This document shows, piece after piece, positions 4,004-39,115 of a DNA stretch of 64,000 nucleotides. Each line of letters opens with the position of its first letter. The stretch's first letter is position 1. The notes beneath the pieces were generated by a model. It did no database searches and was not told the DNA's origin. It saw nothing but the letters and a program-made list of their open reading frames with translations. The stretch lies in contig JALTXX010000003.1 in the NCBI GenBank assembly GCA_027046625.1, positions 1 through 64,000 of the forward strand, in the 5' to 3' direction. This stretch comes from Candidatus Micrarchaeota archaeon. Lineage in GTDB: Archaea; Iainarchaeota; Iainarchaeia; JAADDC01. The position numbers and the translations under genes are program-made.

Positions 4004-4078
4004 GGCCCCGTGGCCCAGCCTGGACAGGGCGTCGGCTTTCGGAGCCGAAGGTCGGGGGTTCGAATCCCCCCGGGGCCG
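4004..4078 (+). tRNA. tRNA-Arg(TCG), intronless, CCA not encoded
   Basis: Acceptor stem GGCCCCG/CGGGGCC, D stem GCCC/GGGC, anticodon arm TCGGC-TT TCG GA-GCCGA, T arm GGGGG-TTCGAAT-CCCCC. Confidence 0.97.
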
Positions 4079-14843: not shown

Positions 14844-15598
14844 AGGCACCGGAACAGAACGATTATGTGGTGGTAAAGGTAACGCGCATCATCCAGTACG
14901 GAGCGTATGTAGAGCTTGAAGAGTTTCCCGGCTGGACAGGGTTTATACATATATCTGAGGTAGCTCCTTACTGGGTAAAGAACATAAGAAGCCATGTTAG
15001 AGAGGGACAAACAAGGGTAGCCAAGGTATTGAAGGTATACCCAGACAAGAAGAGTACAGATCTTTCTCTGAAAAGAGTACCTCAAGCTATAGCCAAGAGA
15101 AAGATGGAAGAGCTTAGGAGATCAAAGAGGGGAAAGTTCCTTCTTGAGCTTGCCGCAAAGTCTATGGGGAGAGATCCTAAAGAGGTGGAAGAGGTATTGG
15201 AAAAGGAGTTTGGAGATGTGTTTGGAGCCTTTGAAAATGCAGCTCTCTATGGAAGGGAAGTATTAGAGAGTGTGGATATAGATGAGGAGTGGAAAAGGGC
15301 TATTGTAGAGATTGCAAACAAGTATATAGAGATTCCAAGGAAGAAAGTGATGAGAACCCTTGAAATAACAGTTCCTGGCCCCTATGGAGCCAAGGTAATA
15401 AGAGAATCTCTTCTATCTATTATTAAAGAGAGCAAGCCAAACACAGAGATAAGGGCATATGTGGCAGGTGTGCCAAGATACACAGTTGAGGTAATTTCCC
15501 ATGACTATAGAACGGCTGAGAAGGTAATAGATGAGATGGTGGAGCGTATAAGGGAGGGTGTGGAGAAGGAAAAGGGAAAAGTTGAGGTGGTAGAATGA
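14840..15598 (+). CDS. eif2a: Translation initiation factor aIF2 alpha
   Basis: S1 domain [30 protein letters not shown]; ATG at 14840. Confidence 0.95.
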
Positions 15599-15768
15599 GA
15601 TTTCTTATGAGGAAGTGTGTAAAGTGCAAGATATACACATTCAAGGATAGGTGCCCCTCTTGTGGAGCGGAAACAGCATCGGCCCATCCTCCGAGGTTTT
15701 CCCCTGAAGATAAGTATGGAAAGTATAGGAGACTTGCAAAAAAGAAATGGGGGTTGGTAGATGTTTGA
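15595..15768 (+). CDS. nop10: H/ACA RNP protein Nop10 (not in ORF track)
   Basis: [40 protein letters not shown]. Confidence 0.95.
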
Positions 15769-22943: not shown

Positions 22944-23177
22944 GGGCAGCGGGCCGTAGGCCGCCTTCTGTATTGAGACGGGATTAGACTTAGCGGGCAT
23001 TCGCCCTTGCACCCAACCCGGACCGTTTCAACCACACCACACATCATGGGTAGGGGTACCTCATCCCTCCGTGTGGTGGGTGTCGTTTCTGTTCCCGGGA
23101 GTCCCTCACGGGACTTGTTTTTAGCGGGTGGGCGGACCTTCCTCAGGAGACCCCCGAGACCCGTCTGCCCGCTGCCC
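22944..23177 (-). ncRNA. rnpB: RNase P RNA (reduced, about 234 nt, type-M-like)
   Basis: P1 GGGCAGCGGGC/GCCCGCUGCCC; CR-I GAGGAAGGUCCGCC; CR-V ACAGAAGGCGGCCUA; ACAGAAA and UGAAACGG loops. Confidence 0.93.
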
Positions 23178-37270: not shown

Positions 37271-37304
37271 TGACGCGGGCAGCCATTGGAGCGACCGGAG
37301 AACC
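37271..37304 (-). other. 3' strand of the 16S bulge-helix-bulge processing stem
   Basis: GGUUCUCCGGUC-GCUC-CAA-UGGCUGCCCGCGUCA pairs with 38903-38936. Confidence 0.9.
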
Positions 37305-37327: not shown

Positions 37328-38828
<1,501 letters not shown>

Positions 38829-38902
38829 TGGCCGCAAGGCCGGCGGGGTTCCGCCGTACCTTGCTTCATCGGTTTCCCTCTGAGTCAAGCCAGGTGGTCA
38901 TC

Positions 38903-38936
38903 GGTTCTCCGGCCTTTGCTCTGGCTGCCCGCGTCA
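38903..38936 (-). other. 5' strand of the 16S bulge-helix-bulge processing stem
   Basis: UGACGCGGGCAGCCA-GAGC-AAA-GGCCGGAGAACC. Confidence 0.9.
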
Positions 38937-38967
38937 GACCCGAGAAATATGAGCTCGGATCCCCATG

Positions 38968-39042
38968 GAATGTGGCCGCAACCGGATGGGGTAGTTCATC
39001 GTGGGGTTACCCCCTCTCCCACCCTAACGCCATGCGGCCAGC
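38968..39042 (-). ncRNA. H/ACA pseudouridylation guide in the pre-16S leader
   Basis: Lower stem GGCCGCA/UGCGGCC followed by ACA; pocket UGGCGUU / AUCCGGU; upper stem with GA/GAUGA K-turn-like motif; pocket matches 16S at 37885-37900. Confidence 0.85.
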
Positions 39043-39062
39043 ATAATGTAAATAGCGTGAAG

Positions 39063-39069
39063 ATTAAAA
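39063..39069 (-). promoter_or_regulatory. Putative TATA box of the 16S transcription unit
   Basis: TTTTAAT about 21-27 nt upstream of the start of the GC-rich leader at 39042. Confidence 0.55.
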
Positions 39070-39115
39070 GGGTGACGCTGCGCAACTCTTAAAAACCCCA
39101 TTTCCTTCTTCTTCC

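Follow-up and report, generated by a model that had tools for sequence, protein, structure and literature searches.

A putative box H/ACA guide RNA at the 5' end of an archaeal 16S rRNA transcript, with a predicted target in helix 31 of the same rRNA

Described guides and leader RNAs

In the classic archaeal box H/ACA guide, the target uridine lies 14–16 nt from the ACA. The other features of the classic archaeal motif are as listed in PMC11077068, and one of the closest described guides comes from the same paper: sR435 of S. islandicus, a classic H/ACA RNA that guides the modification of 16S-U930 (yeast 1191), which appears to be hypermodified. As described there, sR435 has the same parts as the hairpin that we report here (a lower stem, a pocket, an upper stem that bears a K-turn (putative in ours), and an ACA), it has the same target position, and it follows the same downstream logic, in which Nep1 acts with or without Tsr3. 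In contrast to our hairpin, which has one strongly paired predicted rRNA target (7+7 base pairs) and seems to be the first element of the rRNA precursor, sR435 is a small RNA with eight weakly paired targets.

Tang et al. reportedly described, in 2002, a stable RNA of A. fulgidus (16S-D RNA) that arises from the 16S leader after cleavage and ligation at a bulge-helix-bulge. This RNA is said to have three stems with C/D-like motifs, to bind L7Ae, and to have no known function; no H/ACA motif was reportedly found in it. The likeness is that the leader fragment predicted here would also hold an L7Ae-type K-turn hairpin and a helix that is formed with the trailer. In Haloferax, the intron of pre-tRNA-Trp houses a box C/D guide. 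Similarly, the intron RNA of N. equitans tRNA-Met is a guide in the precursor of its own target (PMC3491384). In these tRNA-intron systems, as would be the case at our locus, the guide and the target are parts of one transcript and are separated by EndA at a bulge-helix-bulge. However, the tRNA-intron guides direct methylation, and ours would be a pseudouridylation guide in an rRNA leader.

Two more related systems come from the Thermococcales. Pf9/Pab160 of Pyrococcus is an H/ACA RNA with one hairpin; the 16S site that it guides is close to the P site, and it was validated in vitro and by CMCT (PMC2094053, PMC2377435). In T. kodakarensis, a snoRNA named Tko-19 sits directly before the 16S operon, with which it is likely to be co-transcribed (Jager 2014, PMC4247193). 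Within the portions of the literature that we consulted, one sentence in the latter paper is the only description of an H/ACA guide in a 16S leader. Our starting point was a reading of this DNA from its letters (the sequence-only reading), which had left it open whether other archaea have similar arrangements; the 16S leaders of Thermococcales are a partial precedent (PMC4247193). The kind of RNA and the target position that we discuss below are already known, and the placement in the leader has a thin precedent.

A conserved H/ACA hairpin upstream of the 16S gene

The window is a stretch of 64,000 nt from contig C3 of a 652-kb genome that is 94% complete (among the listed sequencing runs, the stretch occurs in one DNA run, from a metagenome study of a hydrothermal vent, and in no RNA run). 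Its 16S rRNA gene is on the minus strand at 37328..38828 (Rfam RF01959, 1456 bits). There is no 23S gene beside it; the 23S gene of this genome is on another contig.

Upstream of the 16S gene, and on the same strand, is a single-hairpin box H/ACA motif (38971..39039). From 39039 to 38971, its letters are GGCCGCA / UGGCGUU A / GGGUGG GA GA GGGG GUAA CCCC AC GAUGA A CUACCC C / AUCCGGU / UGCGGCC / ACA. The lower stem is formed by GGCCGCA (39039-39033) and UGCGGCC (38980-38974) and is followed by the box ACA (38971..38973). The pocket consists of the 5' guide strand UGGCGUU (39026..39032) and the 3' guide strand AUCCGGU (38981..38987), whose first base is 14 nt before the ACA. Above the pocket, the upper stem pairs GGGUGG (39024-39019) with CUACCC (38994-38989). 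A K-turn signature at 38996..39018, with GA (39018-39017) opposite GAUGA (39000-38996), surrounds an apical stem-loop, GGGG-GUAA-CCCC (39014-39003). The sequence-only reading had given these letters and coordinates, and all of them are correct.

Both the minimum-energy fold and the centroid fold (RNAfold) are the H/ACA hairpin. Taken alone, its stability is ordinary: −34.6 kcal/mol, or z = −1.75, with equal or better folding in 7 of 200 shuffles. The hairpin strand has no match in an Rfam search at E values of up to 10. (On the opposite strand, there is a match at 38972-39088, with E = 0.54 and 20 bits vs. a gathering score of 88, and another sub-threshold match at 38846-38917.) The K-turn signature is about 6 bp above the pocket, and our alignments of eight and of nine copies show no variation in either its 5'-strand GA or its 3'-strand AUGA. 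In our own copy, a K-turn would require one extra bulged A, and judging by its letters, the register is unusual in the relative G008.

Seven relatives, which represent two genera of the family, have the same hairpin upstream of their 16S. A covariance model that was built from these eight copies (our own and the seven relatives') gave one strong match each (E = 1e-15 to 1e-19) in 9 of the 14 family genomes, one of which had not contributed to the model; in our own genome, it matched once. 16S is not assembled in any of the five family genomes without a match, and thus all nine genomes in which the 5' region of 16S is assembled were positive. The sequence-only reading had held that lack of conservation of the pocket and the ACA in relatives would speak against it; both are kept in 9/9 copies.

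The pattern of substitutions is that of a conserved structure. In the alignment of the nine copies, 96.1% of the pair cells are standard pairs, and 8 of the 17 pairs that were tested show changes on both sides. The covariation score was 0.529, vs. 0.208 for shuffles (0 of 500 reached 0.529), and sliding the partners gave at most 0.129. The letters that do not vary are GGCGUU (in the 5' guide strand), GA, AUGA, UCC, and the ACA. The lower stem is 7 bp long in our own copy and 9 bp in most relatives; 98.8% of its cells are paired, and three of its nine pairs change on both sides, while the five central pairs show no variation across the nine copies. The upper stem is looser in genus g2, where three of the four upper stems are weak and have internal loops, and where guide duplexes are as short as 5+6 pairs.

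Could a G+C-rich leader hairpin have come to resemble an H/ACA motif by chance? The single-sequence fold is not significant and Rfam gave no match, as would be expected in that case, but chance is contradicted by the conservation, by the covariation in the stems, and by the covariation of guide and target that is described below. We therefore consider that the hairpin is more than a chance likeness; chance seems extremely improbable. All of the sequence-level features of the classic archaeal motif, as given in PMC11077068, are present and conserved (for the putative K-turn, as its invariant letters), and so the identification in the sequence-only reading stands: by its letters, 39039-38971 is a canonical, real, and conserved single-hairpin archaeal H/ACA guide motif.

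Beyond the family, the model found nothing in 40 class-level 16S leaders (0/40). With a strict filter, a search of 151 class genomes returned nothing outside the family except for a chance-level match in G045, and a script that scanned the leaders of class relatives gave a single match outside the family, which was false. Reading by eye the 16S leader of G015, from the other family of the order, we saw no H/ACA motif.

Pairing of the pocket with helix 31

The predicted target site is in helix 31 of the same 16S, at 37885..37900 on the minus strand. The 5' guide strand pairs with AACGCCA (37891-37885) and the 3' guide strand with AUUGGAU (37900-37894), which leaves the target U (37893, about nt 936 of 16S) and C (37892) unpaired. 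We take the target U to be the equivalent of position 966 in E. coli. The pairing with AUUGGAU-UC-AACGCCA amounts to 7+7 pairs, two of which are G-U, and the letters bear out what had been claimed about the pairing, the unpaired UC, and the 14 nt to the ACA. In the relatives, the guide duplexes have 5-6+6 pairs. The distance from the guide base beside the target U to the ACA is 14 nt in all six genomes where both guide and target are visible.

These six genomes also show the guide and the target changing together. (The contigs of three others, G002, G001, and G009, end before the target.) At the pair beside the target U, 16S contributes the base immediately 5' of that U, and the guide contributes its base at −14. 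Named in this order, the pair is U-A in G000 (our own genome) and G008, G.U in G003, and C-G in G013, G006, and G007. An alignment of leaders from related genomes had been suggested as a check for covariation between pocket and target, and the pair beside the target U does covary, with pairing in 6/6 genomes. As far as comparison of letters can tell, no other single argument for a pocket that reads helix 31 is as strong as this covariation, and it is one of the clearest in-silico cases of a guide and its target changing together.

The pairing is also specific. With a relaxed target pattern (5+6 pairs, with wobble allowed), the helix 31 site is the sole match in 16S and there is no match in the 23S locus; one further match, elsewhere in the window, is at the level of chance. 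The target letters are identical to those given for the stretch at 910-921 in M. jannaschii (GAU-Psi914-CAACGCC), and according to Wurm et al. (2010), M. jannaschii 914 is equivalent to yeast 1191 and human 1248 (PMC2853112). This agrees with the claim of the sequence-only reading that the target is the yeast 1191 position. In many relatives from the class (L049-L088), the target position in helix 31 is A, G, or C and not U.

The modification machinery and Nep1

The genome encodes Cbf5, Gar1, Nop10, L7Ae, EndA, and Nep1. Nop10, an H/ACA protein, had been placed in the window by the sequence-only reading, and we found its gene at 15595..15747 on the plus strand (PF04135, 91.5 bits, above the curated cut-off).

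Nep1 is informative about the target because it methylates only pseudouridine at the position of M. jannaschii 914 and yeast 1191 (PMC2853112). In our sample of the class, Nep1 is present in 14/14 genomes of the family and in 0/107 genomes from 28 other families. Its distribution thus coincides with that of the hairpin, which is in 0/40 leaders outside of the family, although the match involves one clade and hence counts as one event. The co-distribution fits a guide that would make the substrate for Nep1. Tsr3 (PF04034) was not found in our 94%-complete genome, and therefore the target probably ends up as m1-pseudouridine that lacks the acp group.

If the hairpin does act in this way, then it is the likely origin of the pseudouridine on which Nep1 depends in this 652-kb genome. 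We know of no stand-alone enzyme that pseudouridylates the Nep1 site.

Place of the hairpin in the 16S transcript

TTTTAA (39064..39069, minus strand), 30 nt ahead of the point where the hairpin stem begins, is likely to be the TATA box of the 16S promoter. This box is present in all eight upstream regions from the family, and it is 29-36 nt before the stem in the four that we counted (L001, L002, L003, and L005). The sequence-only reading had a TATA-like box here: the part that holds is the conserved TTTTAA at 39069-39064, and the part that does not is the A/T-rich stretch directly before the hairpin. The promoters of N. equitans carry TTTAAA at a distance of 26 nt from the start (PMC3491384). 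Given the conserved box and this spacing, transcription would start within about 6 nt of the hairpin stem.

From the ACA to the mature 5' end of 16S is 142 nt (38971 to 38828). Directly 3' of the ACA is a second module, a C/D-like K-turn hairpin (38934..38966, minus strand) of the form AUGGGGA-hairpin-CUGA. Its pattern AUGRGGAUCCGAG..CUCGGRUCUGAYG is kept in all eight family upstream regions, and it may correspond to the L7Ae-binding leader RNA that was reportedly found in A. fulgidus. The same two-module leader is found at L117:340-395 and at about L250:165-105 (minus strand), in a Nanoarchaeota MAG and a Thermoplasmatales MAG.

The leader then enters a processing stem with the trailer, which we identified as an inverted repeat (I1) and in which we read the bulge-helix-bulge by eye. 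The leader strand (38903..38936, minus strand) has a helix at 38936-38922, GAGC at 38921-38918, a bulge AAA at 38917-38915, and a helix at 38914-38903. The trailer strand (37271..37304, minus strand) has a helix at 37304-37293, GCUC at 37292-37289, a bulge CAA at 37288-37286, and a helix at 37285-37271. Together these give a 15-bp helix, a 4-bp central GAGC/GCUC helix with 3-nt bulges on opposite strands, and a 12-bp helix. The same arrangement, with compensatory changes, is in G003 and G006, which belong to two genera. By its letters, the stem is a canonical bulge-helix-bulge site, 55 nt downstream of the ACA. The accepted pathway in archaea is that EndA cleaves such motifs and that ligation follows (PMC8339473, PMC10351888). 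Because the bulge-helix-bulge is downstream of the ACA, the guide would be expected to be cut out of the precursor as part of a leader fragment of about 125 nt, and so the release by cleavage that had been suggested is what the structure leads one to expect.

A first alternative to a guide within the 16S transcript is that the hairpin is a separate small RNA gene that is driven by the TTTTAA promoter and ends shortly after the ACA, with 16S transcribed from a second promoter downstream. Most of the archaeal H/ACA RNAs that have been described are treated as stand-alone RNAs (PMC3491384, PMC11077068, PMC2377435), and in genus g2 there is a run of three to five T about 20-25 nt after the ACA (L005, L006, L007, and L016), which might be a leaky terminator. 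However, our own sequence has only TTT at this position, and the run is within the loop of a conserved hairpin. Nor did we see another conserved A/T box after the ACA and ahead of the processing stem. The leader strand of this stem begins 35 nt after the ACA, and it has to be transcribed if the conserved bulge-helix-bulge is to form. Finally, the snoRNA in the same place in T. kodakarensis was read as co-transcribed with the 16S operon (PMC4247193). Overall, a separate gene seems unlikely.

A second alternative is that the hairpin is a folding or processing element that times the assembly of the 30S subunit via helix 31 without any pseudouridylation, which would be comparable in principle to the non-modifying snoRNAs of eukaryotes. 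Non-modifying archaeal sRNPs are not known, according to a review (PMC8339473), and the niche would be free. There is a potential basis for such a role: 39029-39040, which comprises the 5' strand of the lower stem and part of the 5' guide, is complementary at 11 of 12 positions to 38829-38840, just before the mature 16S (both on the minus strand). The minimum-energy fold of the whole leader prefers this long-range helix to the H/ACA lower stem, and the H/ACA fold therefore has a competitor; on this folding model, the two could form a structural switch. The invariance of the five central pairs of the lower stem also hints at a second constraint. On the other hand, the hairpin has exactly the geometry of a guide that modifies its target (UN left unpaired, a spacing of 14 nt to the ACA, and a K-turn signature), and in the class, Nep1, which needs a pseudouridine at the target base, is present wherever the hairpin is found. 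Also, a role as a chaperone is compatible with catalysis. An element that does not modify its target at all seems quite improbable.

Two other features of the leader were seen. First, 38967-38981 (minus strand) is 80% complementary to 37959-37973 in 16S. Second, CUUGCGGCC occurs a few bases before the mature 16S in our own family and also in a Desulfurococcaceae MAG, Hadesarchaea-type genomes, and a Woesearchaeota MAG (L125, L240, L291, and L298); from this comparison of letters, it is a widely conserved junction element.

Proposed mechanism

On the strength of the conservation, the covariation, and the placement, we think that the 16S primary transcript very probably opens, at its 5' end, with a working box H/ACA guide. 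Transcription would start a few bases before 39039, and the hairpin would be the first part of the transcript to fold. Its K-turn would bind L7Ae, and its lower stem and ACA would bind Cbf5-Nop10-Gar1. The pocket would then open helix 31 and place U37893 in the active site of Cbf5, which would convert it to pseudouridine, and Nep1 would methylate N1 of that pseudouridine. Finally, EndA would cut the bulge-helix-bulge 55 nt after the ACA, to give a fragment of about 125 nt with both the guide and the second K-turn hairpin.

The guide might act on its own transcript before the cut, on other precursors after the cut, or both. One point that counts against the proposal is that the ACA is internal in the precursor and away from any 3' end. 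Archaeal H/ACA RNAs that have several hairpins tolerate an internal ACA (PMC11077068), so action before cleavage is feasible. If the guide does act in cis, then it offers a simple model for the timing of modification relative to rRNA processing.

Leader hairpins in other archaea

We ran the family covariance model on 16S leaders from public genomes in two scans. The second scan covered 67 of 80 loci and then 11 of the remaining 13; L228 and L229 were left out as duplicates of L157 and L160. All 16 of its matches at E values of up to 1 were upstream of 16S and on the 16S strand. Most of the scanned loci, including five from Methanocaldococcus, had no match to the family model.

Most of the matches were in Thermococci: L157 and L160 (Thermococcus/Thermococci) and 10 of the 13 Thermococci-labelled loci of the second scan, with E values from 0.0006 to 0.27; the place and the strand were the same each time. 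These matches may reflect common descent with our own hairpin, although any G+C-rich H/ACA motif would have the letters that are shared. The Thermococci hairpin (L157:235-313, L160:230-315, and ten further loci) lies about 140 nt before 16S. It carries an ACA and a K-turn signature, its 5' pocket strand is 17 nt long, and there is a small 5' stem-loop. Its pocket (CCUCC and ACGGCGGC) pairs with GGAGG-U-GC..GCCGCCGU in its own 16S. Thus, it resembles our hairpin in being an H/ACA-like element in the 16S leader, on the same strand, that pairs with its own 16S, but it aims at the GGAGG-U-GC site instead of helix 31. We compared the pocket strands of our own hairpin with the equivalent site in our own 16S (GAGGCGG-U-GC-AUGGCCAUCGUC, which corresponds to the Pab 1017 site), and neither strand fits.

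Pab19 has target 1017, which was validated in vitro, and it is described as having a 15-17-nt 5' pocket strand, a small 5' stem-loop, and a UGC target context (PMC2377435). As these three features agree with the hairpin in our scan, Tko-19, Pab19/Pfu19, and the Thermococci leader hairpin are probably the same RNA.

The helix 31 U and the GGAGG-U-type site are 79 nt apart in Thermococci (counted on L219, where the GGAGG-U-GC site is the downstream one) and in our own 16S, and positions 930 and 1009 of S. islandicus are also 79 nt apart (PMC11077068). Pab 922 and Pab 1017, the latter being the target of Pab19, are 95 nt apart vs. these 79 nt, and therefore Pab 922 is not the Nep1 site. We considered Pf9/Pab160 as a guide for the helix 31 U and rejected it, as Pab 922 lies 16 nt 5' of that U (counting on L219). 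As the Thermococci genome G151 encodes Nep1, a guide for its helix 31 U is to be expected.

The other matches were in a Desulfurococcaceae MAG (E = 1.3e-5), a Nanoarchaeota MAG (E = 8e-4), a Woesearchaeota MAG, two Hadesarchaea-type genomes, and a Thermoplasmatales MAG. The hairpins of the Woesearchaeota MAG and of a second Nanoarchaeota MAG have pockets of the helix 31 type, and these two are probably aimed at helix 31; Nep1 was not found in either genome. For the Hadesarchaea-type genomes, such an aim is possible, with weak pairing and no ACA. The pocket letters of the Desulfurococcaceae MAG point to the GGAGG-U site, and the Thermoplasmatales MAG has other pocket letters. We did not count the Hadesarchaea-type hairpins (L240 and L298) as members, given that they have no ACA and fit their own helix 31 weakly, nor the matches at L265 and L238, which have chance-level E values.

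Together with our locus, these look-alikes in Thermococcus, Desulfurococcaceae, Thermoplasmatales, and DPANN suggest, at the level of sequence, that archaeal 16S leaders commonly carry guides for their own modification. A more speculative idea, which we hold only tentatively and would not bet on, is that the design in which the leader starts with a guide hairpin is ancient in archaea, that this hairpin has been re-aimed among sites in the 3' major domain of 16S, and that it acts in cis, modifying its own 16S before EndA removes it. If this were true, then modification would be coupled to processing, with one guide per precursor, and the conserved L7Ae-binding RNA of the 5' leader, known since 2002, would have a function.

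Other observations

In the 16S of a Nanoarchaeota MAG (G153:C14:23999-24607; L220 and L221), helix 31 is directly followed by about 600 nt of inserted sequence (GACGCCGAG, followed by A/T-rich sequence), which is possibly an intron. Our own 23S (G000:C11:18340-22052; L095) spans 3713 nt vs. 2987 positions in the model, so it has one or more insertions. In the leader of this 23S, which we read by eye, there are CUGA and GAUGA motifs, and no H/ACA hairpin was seen. Finally, the window contains a tRNA gene (4004-4078, plus strand) and an archaeal RNase P RNA (22945-23176, minus strand), which means that RNase P is retained here, in contrast to what is described for N. equitans (PMC3491384).
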